Below, in pieces: positions 1,644-38,646 of a DNA stretch of 64,000 nt. The notes under the pieces are model-generated. The model had not been told where the DNA came from. It ran no database searches and saw nothing but the letters and a program-made list of their open reading frames with translations. The translations under genes were made by a program, and so were the position numbers. Numbering within the stretch: position 1 is the first letter of the stretch; the number at the start of each line of letters is the position of its first letter. The stretch comes from Vulcanimicrobiota bacterium (GTDB lineage: Bacteria; Vulcanimicrobiota; Vulcanimicrobiia; Vulcanimicrobiales; Vulcanimicrobiaceae): positions 1-64,000 of the forward strand of contig OY968762.1 of NCBI GenBank assembly GCA_963695225.1, given 5' to 3'.

Positions 1644-1645
1644 CT

Positions 1646-2212: not shown

Positions 2213-2215
2213 GTC

Positions 2216-3459: not shown

Positions 3460-3632
3460 TGCGGTTTCTGGTCGAGCTTGTTCGCACGGTCCTCGATGTG
3501 CGCGACGAGCACAAGCGTCGTGGGAAGGCCAGGCAGCATCCAATGGACGATCCGGCCGTTCCCCGCGCGCCCTCCGATCCCCTGAGCCTGCCGACACGAG
3601 GCGATATTCTTGGCCGACGCATCGAGCCATAA
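3456..3632 (+). CDS. Small hypothetical protein
   Basis: ATGA overlap with the previous stop; fills the operon gap. Confidence 0.4.
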   Translation: MMRFLVELVRTVLDVRDEHKRRGKARQHPMDDPAVPRAPSDPLSLPTRGDILGRRIEP

Positions 3633-3644
3633 GAGAGGGACCTA

Positions 3645-6739: not shown

Positions 6740-7748
6740 CGTCCGCCTCGAGCGCGAGCGGAGCCGGGAACTGGCGCACGGTGCGTTGCTCGATCGGCTC
6801 CTCGGGCCGCTCGCGCAATACCTTGGCGACCCGCTGACGCAGAACGTCAACGTCAACGCCGACGATGCCATCGTTGTCGAGCACGGCGAGCGAGGAAGAT
6901 TCTATGCCTCCGAGACGATGAGTTGCCGCGAGCGGCAATCCCTCGTGACATACCTTGCGGGTCGCAACGATCGCGAGATTCATCGCCTCTGCGCCACCCT
7001 CGAGTGCGACCTGCCGGAATACGACACACGGGTGCAAGCCTATTGCGCGCCCGCCGGCGAGGCATGGGAGATTATGCTCCGACGCCACGCCGCTCGCATC
7101 TTCACGCTCGACGACTACGTCGAGCAAGGGCGCATGACGCCGACGCAGAGGAACGCGATCGCCGCCGCGATCGCCGCGAAGGCGAACCTGTTTATCGGCG
7201 GTGCGTTCAACACCGGCAAGACAACGCTCCTCAACGCCTGTCTAGCGGAGGCCGCGCGCGTCTACCCGGGCGATCGGCTCGCCGTGGTGCAAGACCGGCG
7301 CGAGCTGAAGCCCTCTCACCGCGATCGCATTATGCTCTTCGCCCGATTCGAACAGCTGCGTCACGACGCGCATGGGAACCGCTCGCGCTATATCTACGAC
7401 TTCGGTGACGCGCTCGAGGGACTCGCACGCAGCAGCGCCGATGCCCTCGCGTGGGGCGAGATCCGAGATCCGCGGTCAGCGATCGGCATAACGCTTGCGC
7501 TCAATCTTGGCCTCTCCGGGCTGATGAGCACGATACATGCCGACTCCGGCGTGGCGATCCTCGAGCGAATCGAAGAACTGCTCACCGAGGGCGGCCGCGT
7601 GCCGCAGCGCAGTCGCATTGCGCGCGCGGTCAATTTCCTAGTCCACATGAGCCTCAACCGCGTAACCGGCAGACGCCGGGTTGGTGAAGTTCATCGCGTC
7701 GCCGGCGTCGACCGGGCGGGCAACTACGTTCTTGAGGCGGTCGCCTAA
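6726..7748 (+). CDS. trbB: TrbB/VirB11-family secretion ATPase
   Basis: AGGAG 7 nt before GTG 6726; LGPLAQYLGDP, Walker A GAFNTGKTTLLNA, GEIRD, STIHA. Confidence 0.85.
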   Translation: MWETSVRLERERSRELAHGALLDRLLGPLAQYLGDPLTQNVNVNADDAIVVEHGERGRFYASETMSCRERQSLVTYLAGRNDREIHRLCATLECDLPEYDTRVQAYCAPAGEAWEIMLRRHAARIFTLDDYVEQGRMTPTQRNAIAAAIAAKANLFIGGAFNTGKTTLLNACLAEAARVYPGDRLAVVQDRRELKPSHRDRIMLFARFEQLRHDAHGNRSRYIYDFGDALEGLARSSADALAWGEIRDPRSAIGITLALNLGLSGLMSTIHADSGVAILERIEELLTEGGRVPQRSRIARAVNFLVHMSLNRVTGRRRVGEVHRVAGVDRAGNYVLEAVA

Positions 7749-7779: not shown

Positions 7780-7887
7780 ATGGCTGCCTATAATCGCGTT
7801 ATCATTGTCGGAAACCGTACGCGGGATCCTAAGATCCGCTGCGTCGACGGCGGCGGGAAGGCCGGAGGCGTGGTCGCTAGTGCTTGA
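7780..7887 (+). pseudogene. ssb: Truncated single-stranded DNA-binding protein (N-terminal fragment)
   Basis: Translates MAAYNRVIIVGNRTRDPKIR, the SSB N-terminal pattern (NRVI.VG..TRDP..R); stops after 35 codons; GGAG RBS upstream. Confidence 0.7.
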
Positions 7888-9355
7888 CTCTCAGCCGTCG
7901 GACCTCATCTTCCTCACAACACAACAGCTCGCCGACTTTGCACGCGCGGTCGGCAGGGCATCCGCGGACGAAGCCGCGGAGAAAGTGTTGAAAGGCCTTC
8001 AAGCCGAGGGAAGGCTCAAGCCACAAGAGACAACGACGATAGCGGTCGGTCCCCTTCTCATCGACCTTGCTGGTCAGGAAGCCAGCATCGACGGCGAGCG
8101 GCTGCAAACGACGCCGCGGGAATTCGCCTTGCTGGCCGCTCTCGCGCGTCACGCAGGTCAGGTCCTCACGCGTGACAAGCTGCTGGACCTGGTGCATCCC
8201 GATCCGGGCGCTCCCAACAGCGATCGCATAATCGACGTGTTTGTGCTACGGCTCCGCAAGGCGCTGGGTGAGCACGGGGCGATGATAGAGACGATTCACG
8301 GGTCCGGCTACAAGCTAAGGCGACCACAATTGGGCCAGCGAGCTGTTGAAGGGGGCGTGCTAACGCAACGCCCGGAGGCACGGATCATCGGTGAATTCGT
8401 GCAGGACGCCGGCGTCGCAGGGCTACGCACGAAGGATGGTCGAGGGTACGAGGTTCTAAACCTTAAAACCGATCAGGATGAGCGTCGCCGAGAAGCGGCC
8501 CTCTCGGTCGGAGCCGCCACGCATCGAGTCCGCGAGACGACTTATCCAACGTTGACGAAAAAGGAGCTCGTCGATTTTGCCCGTGCAGTCGGCTTGGAAT
8601 CCGCGGACAAAGCCGCGGCGAAAGTCTTGGGAGGCCTTAAGCCGGCGGAGAGACTCGAGCCGCCCGAGGTAACGACGATAGCAGTCGGTCCACTTGTCGT
8701 CGACCTCGTAGGTCACGAAGCCAAAATCGAGGGCGAGCGCCTTCAGTTGAAGCCGAAGGAGTTCGCATTGTTGGCGGTCCTGGCACGTCATGTGGGTCAG
8801 GTCCTCCCGCGTACCAGGCTCGTCGAGCTCATTTATCCTGATCCCGGTGCTGTCAAGGACGACCGGACAATCGACGTGCATGTCGCAAAGCTGCGCAAAG
8901 CGTTGGGCGAGCACGCAGCGCTGGTCGAGACCAGTCCCGGCTTGGGCTACAAGCTGATGCGGCCACAGTCCGAACAACGCCACGAAGCACGAGTTATCGG
9001 AGAGTTCGTACAGGAGACCGGCATCGCAACGCTCCGCGCCGAGGACGGTCGAGCGTATGACGTCGTTCCGAATCGCTATCCGCTCGTCGCGGAGATCGAC
9101 CGAGATGGGCAGCTTCAGAAAGCCGCTATCATGCTCGATGTCACCGATCGTGATACCGGTAAACAGAAGTACCTCGCGCAGTTCATCGGGACCGGCGAGA
9201 TACAAAGCCTAGCTCAAGCCGGAAAGCTGCAACTCGAGCCCGGTATCGAGACACTGCTGCTCACACGAGGCCGCGGGCATGGCTCGAGACTTGAAGCGGA
9301 ACCGCTGCAAGATCCGCCTGAGCAGCGCCGCTCGGCGAGCCGTCGGCTTCGTTGA
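7880..9355 (+). CDS. Protein with two tandem OmpR/PhoB-type winged-helix domains (no receiver domain) plus the shared C-terminal domain
   Basis: Two copies of PxEFALL..LARH.GQVL.R..L...DR.IDV.V..LRKALGE....ET..G.GYKL; GGAGG before GTG 7880; start uncertain (7805 alternative). Confidence 0.85.
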   Translation: MLDSQPSDLIFLTTQQLADFARAVGRASADEAAEKVLKGLQAEGRLKPQETTTIAVGPLLIDLAGQEASIDGERLQTTPREFALLAALARHAGQVLTRDKLLDLVHPDPGAPNSDRIIDVFVLRLRKALGEHGAMIETIHGSGYKLRRPQLGQRAVEGGVLTQRPEARIIGEFVQDAGVAGLRTKDGRGYEVLNLKTDQDERRREAALSVGAATHRVRETTYPTLTKKELVDFARAVGLESADKAAAKVLGGLKPAERLEPPEVTTIAVGPLVVDLVGHEAKIEGERLQLKPKEFALLAVLARHVGQVLPRTRLVELIYPDPGAVKDDRTIDVHVAKLRKALGEHAALVETSPGLGYKLMRPQSEQRHEARVIGEFVQETGIATLRAEDGRAYDVVPNRYPLVAEIDRDGQLQKAAIMLDVTDRDTGKQKYLAQFIGTGEIQSLAQAGKLQLEPGIETLLLTRGRGHGSRLEAEPLQDPPEQRRSASRRLR

Positions 9356-11750: not shown

Positions 11751-12218
11751 TTACACGCCGTCTCCGTTTACCGGTGGAAGCTTGACCAGCTTGTAGCCCA
11801 CCCCGCGAATCGTCTCGATAAGACCAGCGTTTCTCCCTAACTTCAGCCGAAGCCGCCGTATGTGAACGTCGAGTGTGCGGTCGCTTTCGAGATTCTCGCA
11901 ATTAGGCCAGACGAGCTCGAGCAGGCGTCGGCGCGCCAGCACCTTGCCGGTGTTCCGTGCGAGAACGTTGAGCAGCGCGAACTCCCTTGGCTTCAGGGGA
12001 AGACGGTGCCCCTCAACGTGCGCCTCATAGGCCTCCACGCTCACCGTCAAAGGTCCCGTAACGATGGTGGCAGCGACATCCAAGTTCGCCGGCGTTCGCG
12101 GGTCCCTCGCCACGCGCGCTTTGGCGATAACGCCTTCTGCGAAAGCCTCCAGCTCCGCTTGTGTCAAGACGATCAGTTCGGCCGCAGCCGCTCCAAAGTG
12201 ACCGAGAGACTTTGACAT
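11751..12218 (-). CDS. Stand-alone OmpR/PhoB-type winged-helix regulator lacking a receiver domain
   Basis: KPREFALLNVLARNTGKVL...DRTLDVHIRRLRLKLG...IETIRGVGYKL; GGAGG before ATG 12218. Confidence 0.85.
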   Translation of the reverse strand: MSKSLGHFGAAAAELIVLTQAELEAFAEGVIAKARVARDPRTPANLDVAATIVTGPLTVSVEAYEAHVEGHRLPLKPREFALLNVLARNTGKVLARRRLLELVWPNCENLESDRTLDVHIRRLRLKLGRNAGLIETIRGVGYKLVKLPPVNGDGV

Positions 12219-12434
12219 ATACTGTGCCTCCGCGTGAGCGTCGCGACAGCGATCGAAGACCGTTGCGGCCGCGCCGCCGATGCGTTTCATCAGCGCGACG
12301 CCGGCAGGTGGGGATGTCGCCTCGTCAGGCTTTGCGTCAATCATCCGCTATGCAAAAAAACACGTTGGTATCGCGCGGCTAACGCCGCAGTTAAATCGCC
12401 GCGCTACACTTCACTTCAGAAAGGAGCACCAGCG

Positions 12435-13204: not shown

Positions 13205-13414
13205 TGCGCCTCCATTGGATGACAAACGCGCTTAGGCGGCGGCAAGCACTATTAATGCGTTACTAGCAGTATTTGTGCTACTGCCCGCAGTATGAGGCCT
13301 GTAAGTGCCGCAGTCAAGGCTTGCCAGCAATAAAACTGCGGATGTCGCACCCTAGTAGTAGCGGTGCGAGAGCCCGTAAGCTGGAATGGCGTCTATGAGC
13401 TGCAGGAGGTTGGG

Positions 13415-13762
13415 ATGGGACACGACGCCAGGCCGTTCGCCCTGGTCGTGCGCTTCACGGTGCGCCCAGGAGCCGAGGCGGAATTTGACGCCCTCGTGGC
13501 CGAGACGGTCGCGGGAATCCGCCACCACGAGCCCGGCACTCTTATCTATGCCTGCCACACCGTGCACAGCCAACCGCGCCAGCGGATCTTCTACGAGCTG
13601 TATCAGGACCGGGGCGCTTTTGAGGCGCACGAGCAGAGTGCGCATACTCGCCGGTTTCTCGCCAAACGCGACGCGCTGCTAGAGGCTACCGAGGTGGACT
13701 TCCTGGCCTTCACCGACGGCAAGACCCCGATTACGGCGCAGGTGGCCGGCCGAGATGGCTGA
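13415..13762 (+). CDS. Antibiotic biosynthesis monooxygenase (ABM/quinol monooxygenase) family
   Basis: AGGAGG RBS; VVRFTVRPG..EPGTLIY..FYELYQDRGAFEAH. Confidence 0.85.
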   Translation: MGHDARPFALVVRFTVRPGAEAEFDALVAETVAGIRHHEPGTLIYACHTVHSQPRQRIFYELYQDRGAFEAHEQSAHTRRFLAKRDALLEATEVDFLAFTDGKTPITAQVAGRDG

Positions 13763-14969
13763 TGCCCAGCTGGTCGGCGAGCGGATCGCCTACCACCGCA
13801 AACGGCTGGGACTATCCCAGGTCGAGTTCGCCGGGCTGGTCGGCCGGTCTGACAGTTGGGTATCCCAGGTCGAGCGCGGCGTCCGTCCTGTCGACCGGAT
13901 GTCGGTTCTGCAGCGAGTCGCCGATGTGCTTAGCGTGACGGTCGCCGAGCTGCGAGGTAACGGAGAGGCAAGCGATGTTAACGCGCGGCCGGAGGCCCTC
14001 GACACGATCAGACTTGCATTGACCGGGCATCCCGCGATCGCGCAACTGCTAGGAACGGCCACTGTCACCGCGCCCGCGCAACAGATGGAGACCTTGCGCC
14101 GCCAGCGCGCCGGCATCTGGGAACTAGTCCACGCTAGCCGCTACGGCGACGTGGCGCCCATCCTGGCCGCGCTTATTCCCAGCCTGGAGACCGCCGTCCG
14201 CACAGCGAGCAGCGAGCAGGCCGAGGCACGTGAGCTGCTTGGCGACACCTATCAAGCCGTCGCTGCCTTGATGGTAAAGATCGGCGAAACGGACGCGGCC
14301 TGGATTGCGGCCGACAGGGCCGGGTTCTGCGCCGAAGCGGCCGGGTCACCGCTCGCTGTCGCGGCTAGCATGTTCCGCATGGCGCACGTGTTCTTGGCCT
14401 TGGGCCAGATTGACCAGGCCCACCACGTGGCCACCAGCACCGCCGTAGCCCTGCAGCCGAAGGTCGCCGCAGACGCACGACCGGAGATACTTTCGCTTTA
14501 CGGGGCATCTCATCTAATTCTGGCCGTTGCCGCCGCGCGAGACAACAACCGCAGCGAAGCCCACGACCATCTGGACATTGCCCGGAAAATCGCCGAGCAA
14601 CTCGGCGAGGACCGCGACGACTACGGCACTGAGTTCGGTCCTGCCAACGTCGCCGTCCACGAAATCAGCGTCGCCGTCGAACTCGGCGACGCCGGGAGGG
14701 CCATCGAGCTAGCTCAGCAGGTCAGCCCTACGAACCTTTCACCCGAACGGCAGGCCCGGTATCAACTGGACTTGGCGCAGGCCTATGCCATGCGGCGGCA
14801 GATCGGCGAGGCCCTCCGCGCGCTTCAAGAAGCCGAGCGCATCGCACCAGAGGAAGCCCGCGTCCACTACGTCGGCCGCGCCGTCGCCCGCGATCTGCTT
14901 CAGCTATCCGGCGTGCGGTCACGGCCCGAGCTCCGCGACCTCGCGGAACGATTCGGCGTACTGCCCTAA
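13755..14969 (+). CDS. XRE-family HTH regulator with TPR-like C-terminal domain (actinobacterial type)
   Basis: GERIAYHRKRLGLSQVEFAGLVGRSDSWVSQVERG; EFGPANV, ERQARY motifs. Confidence 0.9.
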   Translation: MADAQLVGERIAYHRKRLGLSQVEFAGLVGRSDSWVSQVERGVRPVDRMSVLQRVADVLSVTVAELRGNGEASDVNARPEALDTIRLALTGHPAIAQLLGTATVTAPAQQMETLRRQRAGIWELVHASRYGDVAPILAALIPSLETAVRTASSEQAEARELLGDTYQAVAALMVKIGETDAAWIAADRAGFCAEAAGSPLAVAASMFRMAHVFLALGQIDQAHHVATSTAVALQPKVAADARPEILSLYGASHLILAVAAARDNNRSEAHDHLDIARKIAEQLGEDRDDYGTEFGPANVAVHEISVAVELGDAGRAIELAQQVSPTNLSPERQARYQLDLAQAYAMRRQIGEALRALQEAERIAPEEARVHYVGRAVARDLLQLSGVRSRPELRDLAERFGVLP

Positions 14970-17189: not shown

Positions 17190-18182
17190 GAATCACGCGC
17201 TCGTCGGTCGTCGCGCGGTGACGCCCTTTTTCGACTTTTAGCGATGGCGAGCACTTACTCGGCACAGAGTAGGTCGAAGACCTTGCGCACCGTTGTTGCG
17301 TCTTGCGCAAGGCCCAGGAGCGTCAGACCCGTTAACGGTCATTTTCAGGTGGACTAACCTTTGCAATGCCACGGCTCGCGGGGTCACGGAACGGGTCGGT
17401 ACCGGGCTGGGCCTCAGGTATGACTAGAGCCCTGAGCAATCGCTCCGGGCTCCGTCAGTCAGATTAGAGGTCACCCTGCGGCGCTTGCGCGCCCTCGAAC
17501 TATTTCTGCCCCGGTTCGAGCCTACGACACCACCCACGAGAGGTGGTTAACAATCGGGCAGGGACGGTCGCGTTCAAAAAGTGGGTCAACGGATCGCCCT
17601 CCTTTTCGGTACGCAATCATTTACGCTTCCAGGCCCCTGTAAGTTAGCGCGATTGAGCCTTCATGCCCCAGCTTCACCAGCCCCTGTTCTAGAGCATAAG
17701 GATCTGTGGGATGGAACCTGCCAGCCGGGAGGCACCTTCACTCGGCGGCCAGGAACGACCAATCCCGCGGACGGAGCGCCCTATGGAACCCGATGCTCTC
17801 CGTCTCGAACGAAATGGGGTCAGGTTACGCCGAGCCCACGAATTCTGCGAGGATCAGAAGGTGCTCGCGCCAGCCGAAAGGGCCGTGACGGCGCTGATCT
17901 CGTCGTCGCCGTGAAGGCGTGCCGTTGCTGCTTTGAGGATGCCAGACGTTTGGCACACCGGTGCTGGATGATGGGCCCGCTTGGCCGGCGAGAGATTGCT
18001 GCTCTGAACAGCTCATCGCGGCGCAAACCTGCGGAAGAGCCGGCCGCACCTTACCGTCCCGGATACGGGCTCTTGAAAAGACTCGCGGCGCAGGTGTCAC
18101 GATTGACCACTTCGCGATGACCTCTCTGTGAGGGCCAAGTTCCAGGTCGGACCCGGATTCACGCAAAGCTCAGAGAAAGACC

Positions 18183-18614
18183 GTGATGCACACGACGATT
18201 CAAATCGAAATCAATGGCCATCCCCACGAGATCCACCACACCGCCCGTACCGGAGCCGAAATCAAGGCCCTCGTCGACGAGGAGCACGGGGAACTGTTCC
18301 GCCTCGACGGCCATGAGCGTCATCCCGTCGGCGATGACGAGATCGTGCATTTGCGCGAGCGCGAGCGCTTCGAAATCGTCCACCGTCACCACCACGTCTC
18401 GATCCGCATCGAGGTCGACGGCGACCCGTACATCTCGCACCACGAGGTCCGCACGGGCGCCGAAATCAAGACGCTCGCGCACCGCCCGCCCGGCAACCTG
18501 CTGTACCGCCTCCGGCCGGACGGCCGGCGCATCAAGATCGGCGACGACGAGCCGGAGCACCTCGAGGAGGGCGAGCGCTTCATAACGGTCCCGCCAGTGG
18601 GCCACGCGAGTTGA
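18183..18614 (+). CDS. Multi-ubiquitin-domain protein (two beta-grasp repeats; BubA/BilA-like)
   Basis: Two repeats I.I.G.....RTGAEIK.L....L[FY]RL....[VI]GDDE..HL...ERF. Confidence 0.85.
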   Translation: MMHTTIQIEINGHPHEIHHTARTGAEIKALVDEEHGELFRLDGHERHPVGDDEIVHLRERERFEIVHRHHHVSIRIEVDGDPYISHHEVRTGAEIKTLAHRPPGNLLYRLRPDGRRIKIGDDEPEHLEEGERFITVPPVGHAS

Positions 18615-18958
18615 GCCCCGCCGAGGAGCGAACGCTCGAGACCGCGTTTGGCCCCGGCGTCCGCGAAGTGGTCGACGACTGTCGTCGCCTCATTATCCTG
18701 CCGATCGTGACGCTCCCCGCCGGTTCGAAGCCGGCGGCGGCGTTCGCGATCTACCACGCGTCGGCGCACGGCGGCTATTCGACCCGGCTCTTTTTCGAAA
18801 CGCCTATCTGCGGCGCGAACGGCGTCACGCTGCCGACGGTGACTGAAGTGCTCTGCGGACGCACGATGTTCGCCGCGAGCTACAACGGCGTTCCGGCCGA
18901 CCTGCCGCCGCACCAGGGAATCCTGGCGCACCTGCGCCTCTACGAGGCCGCACCATGA
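18611..18958 (+). CDS. Divergent prokaryotic E2-like protein
   Basis: TTGA overlap with the Ubl gene; VTLPAG, YSTRLFF, GRTMFAASY, ILAHLR; sits between Ubl and JAB genes. Confidence 0.6.
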   Translation: MSPAEERTLETAFGPGVREVVDDCRRLIILPIVTLPAGSKPAAAFAIYHASAHGGYSTRLFFETPICGANGVTLPTVTEVLCGRTMFAASYNGVPADLPPHQGILAHLRLYEAAP

Positions 18959-19527
18959 TCGACGCCGCTCTCCGATTCGTGACCTGGATGTTTGGGCCAG
19001 CGCAGCCGAGGGCGACGGCGACGGCGTCGGCCAAGGCCGAGCCCGACCGGCACCGGCTGCATATTCCGCGGTCGGTCATCCACGAGCTGCGCGAAGTAAC
19101 ACGCCCGAATCGGCATCGGCTTGAACCGCTCGCGTTTCTCCGGGTTCGTTTTGCGTCGGAAGATAGCCGAACAGTGGTCGTCGCCATCGGCGTTCTTCCA
19201 TTCCCCGATGAGGCGTACGTCGACGGACCCGCTGGCGCGAATTTCAGCACCGAGTGGGCGATAGACGTGGCGAACGAGGCCGCATCCGGCAACATCGGCT
19301 TGATGCTCGTCCACTCGCATGGCGGCCTCGGCATGCCGATGTTCAGCGGCGTCGATGCGCGCACCAACCGATCGATCATGGCGATGCTTGCCGTGGGCGT
19401 CGAGACGGCGCCTTTCGGTGCGGTCGTCCTGAGCGGCACTGACGCCCGCTGCGTTCTCGCGGTCCACGGCAGCTTGACCGACATGAAGGTCGTCGTCGTG
19501 CCGGACTGCTTCGGCGAACTGCGGTGA
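18955..19527 (+). CDS. JAB/MPN metallopeptidase
   Basis: HSH-x8-S-x2-D (HSHGGLGMPMFSGVD) with upstream Glu (RLEPLAF). Confidence 0.8.
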   Translation: MIDAALRFVTWMFGPAQPRATATASAKAEPDRHRLHIPRSVIHELREVTRPNRHRLEPLAFLRVRFASEDSRTVVVAIGVLPFPDEAYVDGPAGANFSTEWAIDVANEAASGNIGLMLVHSHGGLGMPMFSGVDARTNRSIMAMLAVGVETAPFGAVVLSGTDARCVLAVHGSLTDMKVVVVPDCFGELR

Positions 19528-19531
19528 GCGC

Positions 19532-20335
19532 ATGAACACGATGAGCCGCATGAGCTTTCTCGGCAACGGCCTGACCTGGCTGCGGGAAGCCACGGTCACC
19601 GTCCTCGGCGCTGGTGGCGGGGGGTCCCACCTCGCCCAGCAGGTCGCGCATCTAAGCGTCGGGCGGCTCGCCCTAGTCGACTTTGACCCGCTCGAAGACC
19701 ACAACGTCAACCGCGTCGTCGGAGCCAGCTATGGGGACGTCGGTGAGTTGAAGGTCGAGCTGCTCGCCGAGCGCTTCCGAGACCTCGGAACCCGAGTCAT
19801 CCCCGTGCCCCACAAGGCGGAGTCCCGTGAAGGTCGCCGCTGGATCGAGCAAAGCGATGTCGTCTGCGGCGCAGTCGACGGCGCGCGCGCCAGAAACAAC
19901 ATCGAAGGCTTTTGCCGAGCGGCCCTCGTGCCATATATCGACATCGGCCTGAAGATCCACGTCGCCGGCGACGAAACGACGATCCTGGCGATCGGCGGCC
20001 AGATCGTGACATCGGTTCCGGGCGGTCCGTGCCTCCGGTGCGCCGAGGTGGTCACGGACGAAGCGCTGCTGCTTGACCGTCAGGAATATCTTGCGGGGCG
20101 CCCCGAGCAGCAGGTTGTCTCGCTGAACGGCATCCTCGCGTCACAGGCCGTGAGCGGGATGCTCAGCCTCATGACCGGCTACGCGCCAGGCTTCCCGGTC
20201 CCGGCAGTCATCCGGTATGATGGCCTCACGCACACCATGAAACCGGACCCGTACATTCACGCCCCGTGTCCGCATTATACGCTCGATGCCGCGGGCTGGC
20301 GGACCATCCTCCCGCCGCGGATCGCCGCCGCGTGA
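19532..20335 (+). CDS. ThiF/E1-like adenylyltransferase
   Basis: GAGGGGS nucleotide-binding loop, VDFD, NVNR, GAVD, PCLRC. Confidence 0.92.
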   Translation: MNTMSRMSFLGNGLTWLREATVTVLGAGGGGSHLAQQVAHLSVGRLALVDFDPLEDHNVNRVVGASYGDVGELKVELLAERFRDLGTRVIPVPHKAESREGRRWIEQSDVVCGAVDGARARNNIEGFCRAALVPYIDIGLKIHVAGDETTILAIGGQIVTSVPGGPCLRCAEVVTDEALLLDRQEYLAGRPEQQVVSLNGILASQAVSGMLSLMTGYAPGFPVPAVIRYDGLTHTMKPDPYIHAPCPHYTLDAAGWRTILPPRIAAA

Positions 20336-20895
20336 CGAATACGTCGACCGTCGTCGAGATTCTCGACGAAGCAAGAATTACCGGCGACTACGACCGCCTG
20401 ATGCGGTTGCTCTACGCTTTCCTGCTCGGCGACGTCCCCAGCAAAGACGAGATCATTCAGGAAGCACTTATCGAAATCGCAAAGAAGCTTCGCAACGGTG
20501 AGCCCAGCTTTCTCCTAGCACCGAAGCTGCGGGGCATCCTGAACATGTGCGCTCGGCGCCGTCGGAGCGAGCAAGAGCGAGCCGAGAGTCGCCTCGGCGA
20601 CACCGGCTACGAAGTCTACGACGTCGTCGCGCCCGAGACGTCCGACCCCGCCGTAATCCTCGTTCGACTGGAGGACATGGATGAAAAGATCGCGTTGCTA
20701 CGCGAGTTGCGCGACTCGAATGGGCGCTATTTCGAGGCTCTCGTCGCCGACGCTCAAGAGGTCCCTATCCCCGAGCATTTCAGAGCAAAGTTCGGGGAGA
20801 CGGTTACACCAGAGAATTCGCGCAAAATTCGCGAGCGTGCCAAACATAAACTCAGCACGAGCTTGAAGGCCCTCCGGAAGGACTCGTCGACATGA
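20332..20895 (+). CDS. Divergent ECF sigma-factor-like protein
   Basis: GTGA overlap; region-2-like DEIIQEALIEI and region-4-like TPENSRKIRERAKHKL; 187 aa. Confidence 0.6.
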   Translation: MTNTSTVVEILDEARITGDYDRLMRLLYAFLLGDVPSKDEIIQEALIEIAKKLRNGEPSFLLAPKLRGILNMCARRRRSEQERAESRLGDTGYEVYDVVAPETSDPAVILVRLEDMDEKIALLRELRDSNGRYFEALVADAQEVPIPEHFRAKFGETVTPENSRKIRERAKHKLSTSLKALRKDSST

Positions 20896-21326
20896 AGCCT
20901 CGCGACGAAATGACCGCGCTTGCGGCTGACTACATCAAGAATCGCGATACCATTGCCGAGCACGTCGGAGACGCGTTCGCGAACATCCCGCGGGCGCCGC
21001 TGGCGGCGCTCATTGACGACTTCCTGAAAACATCGCCAAGAATTGACATCGCGCCGGTCCTCAAGAAGATCGCGGACACTAACCAAGGCCAGCTCGAAGA
21101 CCTCAATTCGCCCGAGTTCCGCTCGTACCTCATTGCATCGTGCGGTACTAACGACATCCAGCTACGGAGCATCATCGGCACGCTCCTCCACTTCAATTCG
21201 TTCAGCATGACAAAGATGGATGCGGGTAGGCAGGTCACCATCGCCGCGCGCGACGAAAGCAACAGCGGGCAGAAGATCGCGACACTGAGCGAGCTCCTCG
21301 AGCAACGAGAGAAGCGTATCAGGTGA
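20892..21326 (+). CDS. Hypothetical protein, candidate anti-sigma and peptidase substrate
   Basis: Translationally coupled on both sides; TIAAR motif near the C-terminus. Confidence 0.6.
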   Translation: MKPRDEMTALAADYIKNRDTIAEHVGDAFANIPRAPLAALIDDFLKTSPRIDIAPVLKKIADTNQGQLEDLNSPEFRSYLIASCGTNDIQLRSIIGTLLHFNSFSMTKMDAGRQVTIAARDESNSGQKIATLSELLEQREKRIR

Positions 21327-21913
21327 GCCGCTTCATGTCGCACCCATCGAGGCCGAACCCGGTCGCCCTTGCGGACGAGACGCTGAGGCGTTCTGGCCAG
21401 CCGCGCTTGCCGAACGGTCGGGCTATCGACGTTGAGCGGATCGCGCGCGAGTTCTGCAAAGTCGAGCCAATGTTCATTCCCGATCTCAGCCTCGCCGGCA
21501 AGCCGCTCCTCGGGCTCTTCAGTCCAACGTTGAACGCCATCATGGTTGACAGCAGCCAAATCGAGGTGCGGCAGCGGTTCACGGTTGCTCACGAAATCGG
21601 GCATGTGCGACTCGAACACGGCCAAGGGAACGCGGCGTCGCTGTTCGGGCTCGATGAACCCGAAGTGTTCGCCTGCACGGAAGACGACCAGAACCTCGAC
21701 GCCATGGACGAGGCGCGGGCGGAATCGAAAGCCAGGCTGCGACGCGTCAAGGAGATTCGGGCGAACAAGTTCGCCGCTCATTTGTTAATGCCCGACGGGC
21801 TCGTGCGAGATGTCTGGCGGGAAGAACACGGCGACCGAGATCGCGTCGCACATGCCTTGATGGTCTCAAAAGAAGCCCTCGGATACCGTCTTGGCAGCCT
21901 CGGCCTCTCCTAG
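21323..21913 (+). CDS. ImmA/IrrE-family zinc metallopeptidase
   Basis: RQRFTVAHEIGH and EIRANKFAAHLLMP. Confidence 0.92.
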   Translation: MSRFMSHPSRPNPVALADETLRRSGQPRLPNGRAIDVERIAREFCKVEPMFIPDLSLAGKPLLGLFSPTLNAIMVDSSQIEVRQRFTVAHEIGHVRLEHGQGNAASLFGLDEPEVFACTEDDQNLDAMDEARAESKARLRRVKEIRANKFAAHLLMPDGLVRDVWREEHGDRDRVAHALMVSKEALGYRLGSLGLS

Positions 21914-23064: not shown

Positions 23065-24642
23065 ATGAACGCGACTGGCACTCACAAGATTACTCCGTCG
23101 AACCCACGCATCGCATCTCTCCTGACGGACGTATCGCGTGGGAACATAAAGATCCCAGTGTTTCAGCGAGATTTCGTATGGCTCGATGACCAGATAATGA
23201 GTCTGCTGGATTCCATCTACCGTGGGTACCCCGTTGGCTCGCTGCTTCTCTGGTCTACGAAAGAGCGACTCGTGCACGACAGAAGCGTTGGCGGATTTGT
23301 TCTACCTGACACACCGGAGGACTACCCGGTAAATTACGTTCTCGACGGTCAACAACGGCTGACGACGCTCTATGGTGTCTTTAATTCCGACGCCAGAACG
23401 GATGACCCGGAGTTGTCTGGCCGATTCAACGTCTGCTTCGTTCCTGCGGACGAGACGTTTATGCACGCGTCGGTGGCGGACCCGGCGAAGTCCATAAACC
23501 TGCACGTTATCTTGGACACGACTCGCCTCTTACCCGAACTGGCGCGGTTTTCGGACGAGGACAAGAAGAAGATCGCCTATTTGACCGAGCGATTCAAGGA
23601 CTACGAGTTTCCCGTCGTGACGATCCGGGACCGGACGAATCAAGAAGTGTGTAGGGTGTTCCAACGGATCAATTCGTCAGGAACTAGCCTCAGTACGCTG
23701 GAGCTATTGGCGGCATGGACGTGGTCGGAAGAGTTCGATCTACGGGCTGAAATCGAGACGCTGTTGGATAGGCTCAGCGACAAAGGCTACGGCGAACTCG
23801 ACGACAACCTTCTAATGCGTTGCCTCGCCTCGATTGTGCTTGGCTCGATTGATGCCGATGCGTTGGTCGACGCAGCGCCCGACAAATTGATTCAGGGAAT
23901 GTCAACCCTAAAGCAGGCGGCCTTTGCCACGGTTGATTTTCTCGACAAGGAACTCAAGATCAAGAACCTCGTGTTCCTGCCATTTCCAATTATGCTTGTC
24001 CCGCTCGTCAACTTTTTCTCCAAAACACTGAAGCCGACCGCCGCCCATCTTGCCGGACTACGGAAGTGGTTCTGGTATTGCTCCTTCACGCAACGATACA
24101 AAGCGGGCACCAATACATTGGTGATGGAGGATTTAAGAAACATGGCAAGGCTTGCGGAGGGCGAGGCGGTCTTCGACGCACTAAGCCCGAGTGTCGACAC
24201 TGCGCTCTTTCGAAAGACGTGGCGGATCAACTCCACGGCGGCGAAGGCGACTATTTGCCTTCTTGCGCAGTCCCATCCGCGAAGTTTTCTTAACGGGGCT
24301 CCAGTTGACCTCGGAAGTGCATTGGCTGCCTATAACGCACGCGAATTCCACCACATCTATCCGAAGGGGTTTCTGGCCAACATCGGCATCCCATTTCACG
24401 AATCGAACGTAATCGCAAACGTGTGTCTTTTAACGTCCGCTGACAATCGCACAATCAGCGATCGTGACCCCGTGAACTATCTCGCCGAGCTTCCTGCGGC
24501 TCTTCGAACACAGATCTTAGAGTCGGCACTTATCCCCGCGGTCGCTGGCGATGGGTCAAAACCATATGCTGAGTTCCTTTCCCTTCGGGCGGAGGCGCTT
24601 GCAGCAGCAGCGTCGCGCCAAATCAGTACTGGTTCGGCATAA
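23065..24642 (+). CDS. DUF262 (GmrSD/ParB-like) protein with C-terminal HNH-like domain
   Basis: IPVFQRDFVW, GYPVGSLLLW, VLDGQQRLTTL, FQRINSSG, EFHHIYPK..N....N. Confidence 0.9.
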   Translation: MNATGTHKITPSNPRIASLLTDVSRGNIKIPVFQRDFVWLDDQIMSLLDSIYRGYPVGSLLLWSTKERLVHDRSVGGFVLPDTPEDYPVNYVLDGQQRLTTLYGVFNSDARTDDPELSGRFNVCFVPADETFMHASVADPAKSINLHVILDTTRLLPELARFSDEDKKKIAYLTERFKDYEFPVVTIRDRTNQEVCRVFQRINSSGTSLSTLELLAAWTWSEEFDLRAEIETLLDRLSDKGYGELDDNLLMRCLASIVLGSIDADALVDAAPDKLIQGMSTLKQAAFATVDFLDKELKIKNLVFLPFPIMLVPLVNFFSKTLKPTAAHLAGLRKWFWYCSFTQRYKAGTNTLVMEDLRNMARLAEGEAVFDALSPSVDTALFRKTWRINSTAAKATICLLAQSHPRSFLNGAPVDLGSALAAYNAREFHHIYPKGFLANIGIPFHESNVIANVCLLTSADNRTISDRDPVNYLAELPAALRTQILESALIPAVAGDGSKPYAEFLSLRAEALAAAASRQISTGSA

Positions 24643-24837
24643 GTACGGAGTTGCAGGGCGCCCGTGTTGACGGATGCGTGAGCCACTCGATCATGATACT
24701 TGCGTGTAAATGAGGCCGGCTTGGCGCCGCGTTCCGCGATGCGCTCTTCGCAACATGTGGAGCGCCTGGGCGAGGACCGGAGTGGGCAATGGAGTTGCTT
24801 CCATGCCGACCGAGGCTAACAGGCGCAAATTTTGCGT

Positions 24838-24851
24838 CGAACGTATGTTTG
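24838..24851 (+). promoter_or_regulatory. Possible second LexA box upstream of the methyltransferase
   Basis: CGAACGTATGTTTG (one mismatch to CGAAC-N4-GTTCG), 7 nt before GATAAT. Confidence 0.45.
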
Positions 24852-24945
24852 CCCACAAGATAATGTGGAAGATGCGTGGAAACCCGTGGATCACCCGTGG
24901 GTCGCACTGCCCCGCTTGCCGGAGGATACTGCCATAGCCGTCGCG

Positions 24946-26358
24946 ATGCGTGTCGAGCCTTCAGATGTTCGTCCCCGCCGGGGGCACCGGCGGCCGGTAG
25001 GGATCGATCTCTTCGCAGGAGTCGGCGGCCTGTCGCTCGGCTTCGAACAAGCCGGCTTCGACGTCGTCGCATCTGTCGAATACGATCCTGTGCACGCCGC
25101 CGTCCATGAGTTCAATTTCCCGCTCACGAAGGTGGTCTGTTCGGACATCGGCTGCCTGTCGGCCGAGCGGCTCTTGGCGGCTGCGCGCGAAGGCTTTGTC
25201 CGACACGGCCACTCTGCCGAGGACTGGAACCCCGCCGAGATTGACGTTGTTTTTGGCGGCCCGCCGTGCCAGGGCTTCTCAACGATCGGCAAGCGCGACC
25301 CGTCCGACGACCGCAACAAACTAGGCTATAAGTTCGCTGACCTAATTGGCGCAATCAGACCGCGCTACTTTGCCATGGAGAACGTGCCGGGAATGGCTGC
25401 CGGTGGACACGCGAGCATTCTCGCGCGGCTCATTGCCCGCTTTCGTAAGCATGGTTACGAAGTCGCCGTGCAACTAGAAGAGGTTCGGAGGCAGGCGATC
25501 CTCAACGCCGCAGACTTCGGCGTCCCTCAGGATCGGCGTCGACTCATCTTGCTCGGCGCCCGGGAAGGACAGCCGCTGCCATCGTATCCGGCGCCGACGG
25601 TACGGCCGGCCTCGAAGCGCTCTGGCGACCAGCGCGTTACGGACCCGTCCGACGTCTTGTCGCCGGGCCCAACGGTCGGGGACGCTCTGCTCGATCTCCC
25701 CGATCTTGATGGCTTCGACGAGCTAATTTCGACCGACGAAGTTGCGCTGAGGGCCCGGCAGTTCGAGCGATTAACGCGGCTCGCGTCCGACTACGTCCGC
25801 CGATTGCGCGGCATGGACGAAGATCCCTACGATTTGTCACATCGACGGCTATGGGCGCCGCGCGTGCTGACGTCGTCGATGCGTACCGTTCATACTGCCG
25901 AGTCGATTCATCGCTTCGCCTCGACCCGGCAAGGAGATACCGAGCCGATTTCGCGCTTCTATCGTCTGGACGCTCGTGGGTTATGCAACACACTTCGCGC
26001 GGGCACGGGCAGCGAACGCGGTGCTTACACTTCCCCGCGCCCCATCCATCCGACGCTTGATCGGGTGCTCTCCGTTCGCGAGGCCGCTCGGCTGCACTCG
26101 TTTCCCGACTGGTTCCGATTGCACAGGACGAAATGGAATGGTTTCCGGAGCATCGGGAACGCAGTTCCGCCGCTGCTCGGGCGGGCTATCGGTCGAGCGA
26201 TTGTCGAAGCGCTGGACGTCGAGCCGATTCGCCCGGCGCAAGAGATCGCGCTTGGTAATCCGGTCTTGCTTGGCTTGAACCGGCTTCAAGCGGCTGCATA
26301 CTTCGATGCTGACGAGCGGTTTATCCCGAAGGTCCGCAAGCGTCTGACGGTGGTATAA
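24946..26358 (+). CDS. DNA cytosine-C5 methyltransferase
   Basis: IDLFAGVGG, GGPPCQGFS, MENVPG, GVPQDRRR, REAARLHSFPD, IGNAVPP; start approximate. Confidence 0.95.
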   Translation: MRVEPSDVRPRRGHRRPVGIDLFAGVGGLSLGFEQAGFDVVASVEYDPVHAAVHEFNFPLTKVVCSDIGCLSAERLLAAAREGFVRHGHSAEDWNPAEIDVVFGGPPCQGFSTIGKRDPSDDRNKLGYKFADLIGAIRPRYFAMENVPGMAAGGHASILARLIARFRKHGYEVAVQLEEVRRQAILNAADFGVPQDRRRLILLGAREGQPLPSYPAPTVRPASKRSGDQRVTDPSDVLSPGPTVGDALLDLPDLDGFDELISTDEVALRARQFERLTRLASDYVRRLRGMDEDPYDLSHRRLWAPRVLTSSMRTVHTAESIHRFASTRQGDTEPISRFYRLDARGLCNTLRAGTGSERGAYTSPRPIHPTLDRVLSVREAARLHSFPDWFRLHRTKWNGFRSIGNAVPPLLGRAIGRAIVEALDVEPIRPAQEIALGNPVLLGLNRLQAAAYFDADERFIPKVRKRLTVV

Positions 26359-27191
26359 TGGCGAAGCCAGCAAAGGCGGGCATGTATGCCGCCGTGATCG
26401 ACCGGTTGTTCTTTTCCCGATATGAAGCCGGAAAGACGGAACTTGATTTCGACCGTGCCGAAATCGATTCGACGGCCCGCGAACTTGGTCTGGACGTCGC
26501 GAAGAACCTCGGAGACTTAGTCTACTCATTTAAGTTTCGGCGCGACTTGCCGGCCGCGATCCGGGCCACCGCACCGGAAGGCTTGGAATGGCGGCTTACC
26601 AACAGCGGTCGAGCGCGATACAAGTTCATTCTGGGGCCACAATTCCGGGTCGAACCCGACGCGACGCTGGCGGAAACGAAGATACCGGATGCAACCCCTG
26701 GTATCATCGCCAAATACGCACTCTCAGACGAGCAAGCGCTATTAGCGAAGCTGCGCTACAATCGTCTAGTCGATATTTTTACGGGTGTGACATGCTATTC
26801 GCTGCAGAATCATCTACGCACGAGCGTTCTCGTCGACGCTGAGACTAGCGAGACGATGCAGATCGAGACAGACGAGATCTACGTCGGCGTTGATCGAAGG
26901 GGCGCGCACTACGTATTCCCAGTCCAGGCGAAAGGCGGGAGCGATAAGATCGCCATTCAGCAGATCGAGCAAGACGTGCTGCTCTGCCAACAGAAGTTTC
27001 ATGAACTCATTTGCGTCCCAATCGCGGCGCAGTTCATGTCCGGCGATGTAATAGTGCTCTTCGCGTTCGAGTCGTCAGCGGACGGCCCTCGCAAGAGCGT
27101 GGAGCGCCACTACCGACTCGTCGCCGAGGACGACGTTTCGGACGGCGATCTTAAGACCTATCGCGAACGCCTAGGCTCCGACCGTTTCTAG
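26358..27191 (+). CDS. Putative PD-(D/E)xK restriction endonuclease
   Basis: Coupled to the MTase (TAATG); QIETDEIYVG...PVQAKGG. Confidence 0.75.
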   Translation: MAKPAKAGMYAAVIDRLFFSRYEAGKTELDFDRAEIDSTARELGLDVAKNLGDLVYSFKFRRDLPAAIRATAPEGLEWRLTNSGRARYKFILGPQFRVEPDATLAETKIPDATPGIIAKYALSDEQALLAKLRYNRLVDIFTGVTCYSLQNHLRTSVLVDAETSETMQIETDEIYVGVDRRGAHYVFPVQAKGGSDKIAIQQIEQDVLLCQQKFHELICVPIAAQFMSGDVIVLFAFESSADGPRKSVERHYRLVAEDDVSDGDLKTYRERLGSDRF

Positions 27192-27219
27192 AGCTCGGGC
27201 TCTGGGGCCGAAGGCGCGT

Positions 27220-27852
27220 TTGACCGCGCGCATGGTCGCGGAACGGGCGAGGTCGTATTTTCTCGCCGAGGGTCGCGAGTTTCCGTGGCGTGCGGCGCGC
27301 AACCCGTTCCATCTCGCGATTGCCGAAATACTCTTGCAGAGGACGCGCGCTCAAAGCGTCATCCCGACATACTCGGCGATGATTGCTCGTTACCCAACAC
27401 CGTCGGCGCTGGGTGGGGCGTCTCTCCTGGAACTTGAGACGGCGCTGCTGCCTCTCGGGCTCTCAAAGAAGCGAGCTAGGCAACTCGTTGGGATGGGCGC
27501 CGCGGCACGCGATCTCGGCGAAACGATTTTCGGGGATTGGCGGGCATTGCTGACTGATGTTCCTGGGCTAGGTGCATATGCTGCGCGCGCGATTGCGTGT
27601 TTCGGGGGAGGCGAGCCCGTTGGGATCGTGGACGCGAACATCGCGCGAATTTTGCGGCGTGTCTTCCGCATACGCACGACCGATCCACGCGCCGCCGCCT
27701 ATCAGTGCCATGCCGATGAGGTGGCCGTCGCTGCTGTCGATCCACGGGCGACAAACTTCGGTTTGCTTGATGTCGGCGCGGTAGTATGTGCTCCGAGACC
27801 GATGTGTGATCGCTGCCCATTCGCCGATTTCTGCCCACGCTATGGCGTATGA
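27220..27852 (+). CDS. HhH-GPD DNA glycosylase with 4Fe-4S motif (Mig/short MutY-like)
   Basis: FPWR, AEILLQRT, VPGLGAYAA, VDANIAR, C-x5-C-x2-C-x5-C; 210 aa with no MutT-like tail. Confidence 0.85.
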   Translation: MTARMVAERARSYFLAEGREFPWRAARNPFHLAIAEILLQRTRAQSVIPTYSAMIARYPTPSALGGASLLELETALLPLGLSKKRARQLVGMGAAARDLGETIFGDWRALLTDVPGLGAYAARAIACFGGGEPVGIVDANIARILRRVFRIRTTDPRAAAYQCHADEVAVAAVDPRATNFGLLDVGAVVCAPRPMCDRCPFADFCPRYGV

Positions 27853-28744: not shown

Positions 28745-29857
28745 ATGAGCGTCTACAAACGCAAGTCCGGTCAGTGGGCCGTGCGAGTCGACGTCGATCG
28801 CGACGCCGACGGTCGCCGTGTCCGCAAGAACCTCGGCACGTTCCCTACGCGAAAGGCGGCCGAGTCGGCAGAGCGCAAGGCACTCGAAGCGCGGGATCGC
28901 GGAGTCGACTTCGATCTAGCGGCGCTTACAGTCGGTGAAGCCTGCGACCGATTCCTCGATCGGTGCCGGGCGAAAAATCTGGCCCCGGCCAGTTTGACCC
29001 GCTACGCCGAGCACTTCCGGGACCTCAGTGCAATCCGGGACGCGCCTATCGGCCGGCTCACGCACGGCCAGGTGTGCAGAGTCTACCAGGCCGCCGCCGC
29101 ACGAAACCTCTCGCCGAAGTCCCTGCGGGTCCTCCACGGCGCGCTCCGCGCCGTGGTCGCCTGGGCCGTCCCCGAATCGCCCAGCATGCGTGCCTTGACA
29201 CTAGCCGCCCGCGACCTGCCGAGTGTCCCGAAAACCTTGGCGCGGGCGCTCGACGAGGGCGAGGTGCAGCGTCTCCTTGCCGCCGCCGCCGCGACCCCCT
29301 GGGAGGCGTTCCTCGTGCTGGCGATCTGCACCGGGGCGCGGCGATCGGAGCTTGCGGCCCTGCGTTGGGACGACATCGACTTTGCGCATCGGACGGCCAA
29401 GATCGCGCGCTCCTTGGCGTTCGACGTGCAGGGCGACCTCGCCGAAAAGTCTACGAAGACCGGGACCGAGCGCTTCGTCTCACTGAACGTCCTCGCTCTC
29501 GATACGCTCCGCGCACACCGGGCAAACCAAGCCGAAGAGCGCCTGCGCGCCGGACCGGCCTACGAAGCGAACAATCTCATCTTCGCCGACCCGGTAGGAC
29601 GGCCGTGGAACCCCCACTCGATCTCAAACGCGTTCGCTCGACTAGCCAAGCGTGCGGGTGTTTGCGGACGCTTACACGACTTGAGGCACAGTTGCGCGAG
29701 CTGGCTGTTGCAGGGCGGAACCGACGTTCGGACCGTTGCGGGGATCCTCGGCCACAGCACTCCGGTCACGACCCTCGGCACCTACGCCCACGTCATGCCC
29801 GGAGCACAGGCGCAGGCCGTCGAGCAGATCGCCGATCGCCTCCGCCGGCGCCCGTAA
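28745..29857 (+). CDS. int: Tyrosine integrase with N-terminal arm-binding domain
   Basis: TGARRSEL, TKTG, HDLRHS, LGHS, TYAH; complete catalytic set. Confidence 0.95.
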   Translation: MSVYKRKSGQWAVRVDVDRDADGRRVRKNLGTFPTRKAAESAERKALEARDRGVDFDLAALTVGEACDRFLDRCRAKNLAPASLTRYAEHFRDLSAIRDAPIGRLTHGQVCRVYQAAAARNLSPKSLRVLHGALRAVVAWAVPESPSMRALTLAARDLPSVPKTLARALDEGEVQRLLAAAAATPWEAFLVLAICTGARRSELAALRWDDIDFAHRTAKIARSLAFDVQGDLAEKSTKTGTERFVSLNVLALDTLRAHRANQAEERLRAGPAYEANNLIFADPVGRPWNPHSISNAFARLAKRAGVCGRLHDLRHSCASWLLQGGTDVRTVAGILGHSTPVTTLGTYAHVMPGAQAQAVEQIADRLRRRP

Positions 29858-30004: not shown

Positions 30005-30028
30005 CGAGTTCGAGTCTCGGTCATCCCA
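30005..30028 (+). repeat. att core: 3' end of a tRNA (T-arm plus acceptor strand)
   Basis: CGAG-TTCGAGT-CTCGG-TCATCCC-A; identical copy at 38499-38522. Confidence 0.85.
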
Positions 30029-30413
30029 TTGAAAGAACCTTAATTTGATAGGATTCTTTGAGTAAGGCAAGCGTGCGAGGTGGCCATTCGGCGGTGCATC
30101 CATGGCAATCTCTTGGTTAAACCCAAGCTAGGACGTTTGTGCGATTGTCGATTCTGGTATTGTTACTGACCCGAATCCGAGAAGTTTGGAGTAACTAAGC
30201 TGGATTGGAAAATAGGGCCTACGGTTGCCGCTTTAGCGCAGGATACGAAACCAAACGGTGATCGAAAAGATCGTTGGGGCCTACTACTGAGAAGTCGGGT
30301 CACCGATCTACGACACCTGCAGACCGCCAAGATAGTGGCATGAAAGGACCTCGCCCAGTCATTCACGATTACGGCAACTACGCAGGGAATCGGCGAAGAC
30401 GGGTTGGGCTTGA

Positions 30414-38192: not shown

Positions 38193-38351
38193 ATGAGTCG
38201 CGTTGAAGACTTAAGAGAGAACGCGACCGTTCGCGGGATTTTGCCTAGCGGTCTCGTCACCGTGGTCAGTACGAAGTGGTATGGGTCGGCCGCCCTAGCT
38301 CAGGCGCAGGCCGTCGAGCAGATCGCCGATCGCCTCCGCCGGCGCCCGTAG
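38193..38351 (+). pseudogene. Chimeric remnant: helicase-like N-terminus fused in frame to integrase C-terminus
   Basis: MSRVEDLRENATVRGILPSGLVTVVSTKWYGS followed by AQAQAVEQIADRLRRRP, identical to the integrase tail. Confidence 0.7.
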
Positions 38352-38522
38352 GGGCCACGGAGAGCGGTGACCATTTGGTGACCATACGGGTCACCAAAGG
38401 CGGGTACTGGACAATACCAGACGAGCCGCGATGTCGCGCAAACTCCTACGCGGCGGGCTTCTTCGACACCAGGCGCTACGGAACGACACCGCTACCCTCG
38501 AGTTCGAGTCTCGGTCATCCCA
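38301..38522 (+). repeat. 222-bp direct repeat of 29807-30028
   Basis: Manual comparison: 13 mismatches, no gaps. Confidence 0.95.
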
Positions 38523-38646
38523 GCGAAAACCCGCGGGCCGGCGACCTTCGCTTTTCGGTTCGCGAAAACGAGAGGATGCGGGCTCTTCGGGCCCCAAGCA
38601 TGAGGGGTTTGTCTAGGCAAATCAGCTTGCTTTCGGAGATCCCTCC

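Follow-up and report, generated by a model that had tools for sequence, protein, structure and literature searches.

A 64,000-nucleotide stretch of DNA from a Vulcanimicrobiota bacterium (contig OY968762.1, positions 1 to 64,000, forward strand; hereafter the window) carries a seven-gene operon in which four Bub-like (ubiquitin-like conjugation) genes are followed by a regulatory triad: a divergent ECF-type sigma factor, a 144-aa protein (the partner) and an M78 (ImmA/IrrE/CapP) zinc peptidase. We suggest, with a probability of roughly 60%, that this triad is a self-amplifying on-switch for the operon, working through a protease cut, a ClpXP degron, a freed sigma factor and a private promoter. 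In predicted models, the partner would hold the ECF-fold sigma factor inactive. By analogy with characterised systems, the zinc peptidase would cut the partner between the AA and the R of a conserved AAR motif, the exposed AA end would send the partner to ClpXP, and the freed sigma factor would transcribe the whole operon from TGTCAC-N17/18-GACCT. A stress signal, most likely DNA damage or infection, may act through a cysteine switch in the peptidase. Since these three genes close the operon that they would switch on, at its 3' end, the result would be a positive loop. The gene order, its conservation, the active-site residues and the motifs were observed directly.

As originally described, the seven open reading frames (ORFs) lie on the plus strand (18183-21913), with junctions that read, in order, TTGA, ATGA, a 4-nt gap (19528-19531), GTGA, ATGA and GTGA. 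Searches with a profile of the partner gene recovered 13 metagenome loci, 3 genome loci and 8/401 genomes of the phylum, including the host. One genome locus (L016, Lachnospiraceae, E 6e-4) was dropped as a chance match inside a rhomboid-like membrane protein, and removal of duplicates (G164 gave the same hits as L001, and G126 is L015) left 20 other distinct loci. We observed that the seven-gene order was kept in 20/20 of these, as far as the contigs extend. The sigma gene stood before the partner gene in 19/19 loci with room for it, the peptidase gene followed the partner gene in 19/19 (one with a frameshift, one with an internal deletion and one interrupted where the contig stops), and the E1 gene preceded the sigma gene in 18/18. 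Overlaps of 4 nt were common to most related loci, with short gaps instead in the most distant ones. Conservation of the order across these 20 loci shows that the arrangement is not due to chance. In no case seen within this lineage did the triad accompany a different cargo.

Profiles of the other genes delimited the family further. The peptidase profile matched 19/401 phylum genomes; seven places scored at E ≤2e-48 (six triads and one truncated orphan, G059), and the rest at 5e-22 or weaker. In a tree, 11 triad-type peptidases fell on one side of a branch and 16 others on the opposite side (support 90/94, below the starred level). No partner homologue was found at 79 viral-contig ImmA loci or at 15 other ImmA places in the phylum, and an apparent sigma match near those places proved to be a wrong-frame 60-aa ORF. 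The sigma factor had no match among plasmids, and the three plasmid ImmA matches inspected were XRE pairs. The E2 profile matched 11/401 phylum genomes, three of them beyond the partner-profile set: G149 holds a remnant of the ubiquitin-like (Ubl) and E2 genes, G024 a decayed copy in which the sigma gene is reduced to a stub of 80 aa, and G103 (L159, 5359-8613) an unfused Ubl-E2-JAB-E1 operon with a divergent XRE and ImmA pair. The regulator module is swapped in the G103 operon.

The fifth gene (20332-20895, plus strand) had been called a divergent ECF-like sigma factor, and its fold was borne out by an AlphaFold2 (AF2) model and by both structure searches; the identity rests on family-level profile matches together with the fold. 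The model (mean pLDDT 83.8) consists of sigma2 (approximately residues 1-90) and sigma4 (118-185) only, joined by a short linker. Residues 1-94 matched region 2 of sigmaE (Z 6.5, root-mean-square deviation (rmsd) 3.8, 92 residues aligned), residues 118-181 matched sigma4 of SigW (Z 7.2, rmsd 2.1, 58 aligned), and nearly all top matches in both searches were sigma factors. The window protein had no significant Pfam match, to sigma families or otherwise, and stayed below the cut-off of a curated ECF profile (TIGR02989, E 0.025, 14.5 bits versus 124.55). The same profile was weakly matched by 7/14 sigma homologues, whose best NCBIfam family match was SigJ (6.5e-7). Searched against 1.84 billion representatives, the sigma profile returned 30 matches, and a canonical ECF protein with Sigma70_r2 and Sigma70_r4 is among the weakest of these. 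Unnamed clusters of sigma look-alikes from several phyla appeared in the ESM Atlas at 0.96-0.97, one of them with 16% Sigma70_r2, which we treat as a lead only. Shiga-toxin-family matches of one sigma homologue (E 0.03) were taken as chance.

The partner, encoded by the sixth gene (20892-21326, plus strand), is a predicted soluble anti-sigma factor, as judged from its predicted complex with the sigma factor and from motif conservation. Its AF2 model (pLDDT 68.9) is all-helical to residue 109; residues 110-129 form a linker of low confidence, after which comes a final helix. Along the protein, predicted sigma-binding helices (4-36) lead into a helical core with an invariant NQG, the linker with an invariant AAR, and the C-terminal helix. 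No helix-turn-helix (HTH) was detected by fold search, HTH profiles or profile comparison with XRE proteins, which agrees with the original prediction. At E 0.1, 0/32 family members matched HTH_3 or HTH_31, and comparison of the partner profile with 20 XRE proteins (hhalign) gave a probability of 0.3%. A truncated XRE domain as the identity of the core was supported by neither the fold search nor this comparison. The partner had no significant Pfam, PHROG or PDB match, its fold matches were generic and covered residues 34-114 only, and the ESM Atlas was uninformative (recognition 2216). Thioredoxin matches to its profile (E at best 0.06) were taken as chance.

Prediction of the sigma/partner complex gave a score of 0.83 (median of three runs), compared to 0.00 for the best of three controls. 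The mark applied to this score was reached by 116/157 solved complexes and by 2/215 mismatched pairs. The runs shared at least 92% of their contacts, with a partner pLDDT of at least 76, and in the predicted interface residues 4-36 and 62-83 of the partner contacted sigma2 as well as the opening helices of sigma4. As expected of an anti-sigma factor, the N-terminal helices of the partner bound sigma2 and sigma4 of the co-encoded sigma factor in these predictions.

The seventh gene (21323-21913, plus strand) encodes an HEXXH peptidase of the ImmA/IrrE family, as had been noted (PF06114, E 1.7e-16, 60.6 bits versus a cut-off of 22; PADLOC capP, E 2.6e-17; HEIGH at residues 90-94). H90, E91, H94, E144 and a candidate cysteine-switch residue, C118, were invariant in 17/17 intact peptidases. 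C118 is followed by acidic residues, with the C-x-x-D-D spacing of CapP C114/D117/D118, a likeness in sequence position only; a cysteine-switch loop is described in about a third of CapP proteins (PMC13228613). The peptidase (196 aa) has no GAF domain and ends just after an HTH-like tail. Aligned members measure 180-205 aa (17/17), fused or longer forms lying outside that set.

The trigger is the least certain part of the model. Single-stranded DNA (ssDNA) is described as stimulating IrrE and CapP through a groove between peptidase and GAF domain (PMC13228613). Sensing of ssDNA through such a groove is not supported here, because the peptidase is without a GAF domain, and in the assays described ssDNA gave no stimulation of the GAF-less ImmA (PMC12828697 / PMC6868357). 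The ssDNA trigger assumed earlier finds no support on these grounds. DNA damage is most likely the trigger by family and context, and would then act through some route other than the GAF groove. It is possible, on the doubtful side, that the cysteine switch reads a change in metal or redox state, or feedback from the Ubl system with the triad as a conjugation target; the other steps of the on-switch would be compatible with such a trigger. The missing GAF domain, the invariant Cys118 and the His-rich Ubl would fit it, as would the report that, in one condition, MpaR could be activated without SOS (PMC6872733). The triad also shares the E1 transcript, and its divergence tracks that of E1 (Spearman 0.70-0.91 across 10 loci, the related loci not being independent). 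Against this stand the surroundings of Bub operons, which are described as commonly paired with the DNA-damage regulators CapW, CapH/CapP as well as CapK/CapS (PMC11601596 / bioRxiv 10.1101/2024.11.21.623966), and the position of the cassette among restriction genes within an integrative conjugative element (ICE; VirD4 4469-6736, VirB11 6621-7745, integrase 28745-29857).

The candidate cut site lies near the C-terminus of the partner. The TIAAR motif singled out in the original prediction is present at residues 116-120 (21237-21251, plus strand), with a T unique to the window copy (1/37 homologues). What is conserved is a hydrophobic residue followed by AAR, (I/V/M/A/L)AAR, in 37/37 partner homologues (I 29, V 3, M 2, A 2, L 1), located 22-25 residues from the C-terminus in the 36 complete ones. 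The motif matches the mapped cut site of a protease of the same family: MpaR, a DUF955/M78-family protease, is reported to cut TIAAHID between Ala and His (Argov et al., PMC6872733). CapH is cut at F82/R83, with the Arg required (Lau et al. 2022, bioRxiv 10.1101/2022.04.27.489752), and DdrO and ImmR are described as cut at L106/R107 and F95/M96 (PMC12828697, PMC6868357). By analogy, we infer a cut between A119 and R120 that would leave an IAA C-terminus.

AAR (118-120) lies within the low-confidence linker, outside the predicted sigma interface, so that a cut at A119/R120 should not free the sigma factor directly. The cut by itself is therefore probably insufficient for release, and a second, degradation step is likely to be needed. 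Precedents for such a step are described for CalpT, in which the cut alone leaves the sigma factor bound and a fragment with an LAA degron must be degraded (bioRxiv 10.1101/2024.05.08.593097), and for RseA, with a VAA end and ClpXP (bioRxiv 10.1101/491043). The host genome contains clpX and a tmRNA tag ending in LAA.

Release without a degron is an unlikely variant of the same sigma/anti-sigma pairing: the peptidase could cut elsewhere in the linker, remove a C-terminal, possibly dimerising, helix, or bind in the manner of Rir. CapH and DdrO are described as inactivated by loss of a C-terminal dimerisation helix, the partner has a conserved amphipathic helix after AAR, and Rir, an M78 protein, reportedly inhibits without detectable cleavage. 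However, the two Ala residues are invariant in 37/37 while their neighbours vary, which fits a terminal AA degron, and the wholly N-terminal predicted interface should be left intact by a distal cut.

Improbable as well is a partner that is a DNA-binding repressor or co-regulator of unrecognised fold, following CapH-like logic, with the sigma factor as a separate activator or a degenerate passenger. All characterised M78 substrates in the sources consulted are HTH repressors, the partner core (36-110) has only generic helical matches, among them some homeodomains at Z ~5, and the sigma factor is the fastest-evolving of the four genes compared (median identity 0.24 versus 0.57 for E1). The HTH searches and the strong predicted sigma binding reported above speak against it, and the motif upstream of the operon is two-boxed and non-palindromic, with ECF-promoter spacing.

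That upstream motif supplies the predicted private promoter (18076-18132, plus strand), and falls inside the stretch of 18.0-18.18 kb proposed earlier for a reporter, with its boxes at 18095-18132. An A-tract (18076-18079) is followed by a -35-like TGTCAC (18095-18100), a -10-like GACCT (18119-18123) and a conserved RTGAA-like box (18128-18132). Across loci the motif reads YGTCAC-N17/18-GACCT-N4-RTGAA, often after an A-tract; it is best conserved within the boxes, and poorly so in the spacer and flanks. In a leave-one-out comparison with 150 random genome windows, made slightly lenient by site positions that were set with all sequences, 9/12 upstream regions beat all 150. With a matrix built from 8 other loci, the window site was the top match in the 2.98-Mb genome (27.8 versus 22.3 for the next). 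In the held-out remnant in G149, the best site (19.5) lay 57 nt before its Ubl gene. No site was found before three CapH/CapP-type operons (L159, L141 and L032), including the sister four-gene operon of G103 with its divergent XRE and ImmA pair, and no sigma-70 consensus precedes the window operon. A conserved leader ORF starting at the RTG of the motif was rejected, since its frame differs between loci by eye. These data suggest that the two-box motif is a private promoter for the co-encoded sigma factor. That a host ECF sigma factor (e.g. ECF41-like) reads the motif, while the encoded one has other targets or is a toxic RNA-polymerase decoy, is the least probable reading: TGTCACA has been shown to serve ECF41 as its -35 box (PMC3426412) and CalpS, toxic once freed, is reported to arrest growth in E. 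coli (bioRxiv 10.1101/2024.05.08.593097), but the -10 box differs from the CGTC of ECF41, the motif tracks triad-type and not CapH/CapP operons, and the next two genome matches lie inside coding regions, so that no wider regulon was seen.

Besides the ImmA and Rir results, several points weigh against the proposed on-switch. The structural scores of the sigma factor are middling (Z up to 7.2; best Foldseek E 0.07, none below 0.001). The complex score of 0.83 may reflect likeness, as sigma/anti-sigma complexes are frequent among solved structures, and its calibration is only rough, since the prediction used custom alignments. At three of the four M78 cuts mapped so far, P1 is a large hydrophobic residue (F, L, F), so the peptidase could cut before AA and create no degron. 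The promoter motif was initially recognised by eye, with the window sequence as its seed, and it was not significant in L011 (7/150), L029 (16/150) or L028 (79/150). In L029 (7718-7990, genome G165) an internal deletion leaves a 91-aa peptidase stripped of HExxH while the other six genes stay open. For the cargo, the sources consulted describe no Bub operon shown to block phage (PMC11601596 / bioRxiv 10.1101/2024.11.21.623966). Taken as a whole, the original prediction is partly supported: the predicted sigma fold, a non-XRE partner predicted to bind sigma, the cut-motif match and the candidate promoter speak for it, and support was lacking for the absence of precedent, the ssDNA trigger and release by the cut alone.

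The cargo is predicted to work like a Bub operon yet lacks two of the features by which Types I and II are defined. The first gene (18183-18614, plus strand) encodes a BubA-like Ubl with PF14452 matches in two stretches (E 6.8e-10); it has two beta-grasp repeats and ends in Gly plus 3 residues, as judged from C-terminal ends compared among homologues. By eye it is His-rich (18/143 residues), as are most homologues, which may point to metal binding. The second gene (18611-18958, plus strand) encodes a diverged, BubB-like E2 with no Pfam or PDB match. Its Ser90 (11/11) and His107 are invariant, no Cys is, and S90 was placed at the catalytic position by eye; a comparison with two BubB-like proteins gave a weak profile match (probability 42%, E 2.7e-4) over the N-terminal 74 columns only. 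The third gene (18955-19527, plus strand) encodes a stand-alone JAB-like peptidase (BubC-like), with a weak PF14464 match (E 0.039) and an HSH motif. The fourth gene (19532-20335, plus strand) encodes a stand-alone BubD-like E1 of 267 aa with a single adenylation domain (ThiF, E 7.4e-28), which keeps a CxxC and a C-terminal Cys. Its best solved relative is Citrobacter BubCD (E 2.9e-15 with the single sequence, 8.9e-24 with the profile). The crossover-loop Tyr186 is invariant (13/13) and aligned with the crossover Tyr of BubCD (chain position ~372, read as Y370 on the assumption that a tag shifts the numbering).

The Tyr-type E1 and Ser-type E2 that mark Bub are both present, and the JAB-E1 (Type I) and E2-E1 (Type II) fusions are absent from the window and from intact homologues. 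BubE (PF20137, DUF6527) was found in none of the G000, G164, G120 and G165 genomes; the one in G145 belongs to a canonical Bub locus elsewhere in that genome. The hallmarks of Bil, an IAD-AAD-CYS E1 and Cys chemistry, were not seen, the E1 being single-domain and the E2 without an invariant Cys.

The ICE is ~53 kb long and spans the contig origin, with attachment-like repeats at 30005-30091 and 38297-38528 of the window and at 2956123-2956209 of the genome (G000). The core of the repeats is similar to the 3' end of a tRNA; inspected by eye, the left copy looks like the 3' half of a tRNA-Leu split by an intron, and tRNA-Leu(UAA) is absent from the ARAGORN list of the host genome. A second island of 8.5 kb between two 232-nt repeats carries an HNH gene, an Mrr-type 1291-aa protein and a PIN gene. 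Window positions 1-6809, with type IV secretion system (T4SS) genes of the ICE, recur at the contig end (G000 2972713-2979520, 95% identity), possibly as an untrimmed circular overlap with errors or as a real duplication. Genes for a GmrSD-like protein, a C5 methylase, a type II restriction enzyme and an HhH-GPD glycosylase lie downstream of the triad (23065-27852). Upstream are two genes for proteins with OmpR-type DNA-binding domains and no receiver match (7805-9355, with two such domains, and 11751-12344), and an ABM-domain gene with an XRE-TPR regulator (13364-14969), a type of pair more usual in actinobacteria. No Rfam match was found in 8000-40000. Other copies of the cassette (L027, L028, L029, L014, L005 and L030) also lie in a mobile or defence setting, with a McrBC/LlaJI-like system, T4SS genes, KwaB, an Mrr nuclease, integrases and Fic. 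Two distant loci (L015 5634-7183 and L029 11002-12540) share an unannotated gene of ~510 aa directly upstream of Ubl, with no Pfam match at 1e-6 and a Gln...Cys pattern suggestive, by eye, of a cysteine peptidase.

The original prediction knew of no described example of this arrangement, and here it needs qualifying: protease/anti-sigma/sigma defence triads with other proteases have been characterised. Csx29-Csx30-CASP-sigma is reportedly one such defence-linked triad of protease, anti-sigma factor and ECF-like sigma factor. CalpL-CalpT-CalpS is described as another, in which the cut in CalpT exposes an LAA degron needed for release (bioRxiv 10.1101/2024.05.08.593097). Unlike in the Calp and Csx29 systems, the protease here is an M78 zinc peptidase and not SAVED-Lon or TPR-CHAT, there is no CRISPR link or cyclic-nucleotide sensor, and a candidate cognate promoter motif precedes the triad's own operon. 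Closer to the M78 family, one sentence in Lau et al. 2022 notes, with no experiment, 24 CBASS capH/capP systems with an adjoining sigma-70-family gene (bioRxiv 10.1101/2022.04.27.489752). A literature search that left most subscription journals outside turned up no publication in which an M78 peptidase/anti-sigma/sigma triad was put to the test, and the main text of the ECF reclassification paper names no DUF955, IrrE, ImmA or M78.

With CapH and CapP as described (Lau et al. 2022; Calloji et al. 2026, PMC13228613), the triad shares an M78 peptidase, the cysteine-switch spacing, a small partner that carries, close to its C-terminus, a motif whose last residue is Arg, and a place beside a Bub-type operon. 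It differs in the absent GAF domain, in a partner without a detectable HTH, in the predicted positive control through a sigma factor, and in regulators that stand at the 3' end of the same transcript and not divergent from it. MpaR with cI-like repressors and ImmA/ImmR (PMC6872733; PMC12828697) are described as having a short GAF-less M78 peptidase on a mobile element and a TIAA-x cut motif followed by an acidic linker and last helix, as here; in our case the substrate is a predicted anti-sigma factor and not an XRE repressor, and no prophage or ICE derepression is involved as far as visible. Type I and II Bub systems as described (Ye et al., PMC11601596) share the Ubl, Ser-type E2, JAB and Tyr-type E1, whereas the present cassette has four separate genes, no BubE/DUF6527 in operon or genome, an E2 without the S-x-H histidine, and an E1 that keeps CxxC and a C-terminal Cys.

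The cassette is real, conserved and related to known protease-gated regulators, and its mechanism is probable. What our analysis adds is the MpaR-type site with the degron model, the in-phylum promoter control and the unfused, BubE-less operon. Somewhat short of even odds, we would venture that the triad represents a signalling class of its own, in which an ImmA-family zinc protease no longer cuts repressors but has been redirected to expose a ClpXP degron on an anti-sigma factor, in a private, positive-feedback sigma loop over a third, BubE-less architecture of Ser/Tyr ubiquitin-like conjugation operons. The known DNA-damage controllers of immune operons, CapW, CapH/CapP as well as CapK/CapS, all lift repression, whereas the triad would activate through a dedicated sigma factor. 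With cut site, degron, switch cysteine and promoter named, each step is testable by point changes. If true, the model would explain the sigma genes beside capH/capP, noted but not studied, may yield an orthogonal sigma/promoter pair, and would help to tell under which circumstances Bub-like operons are expressed.

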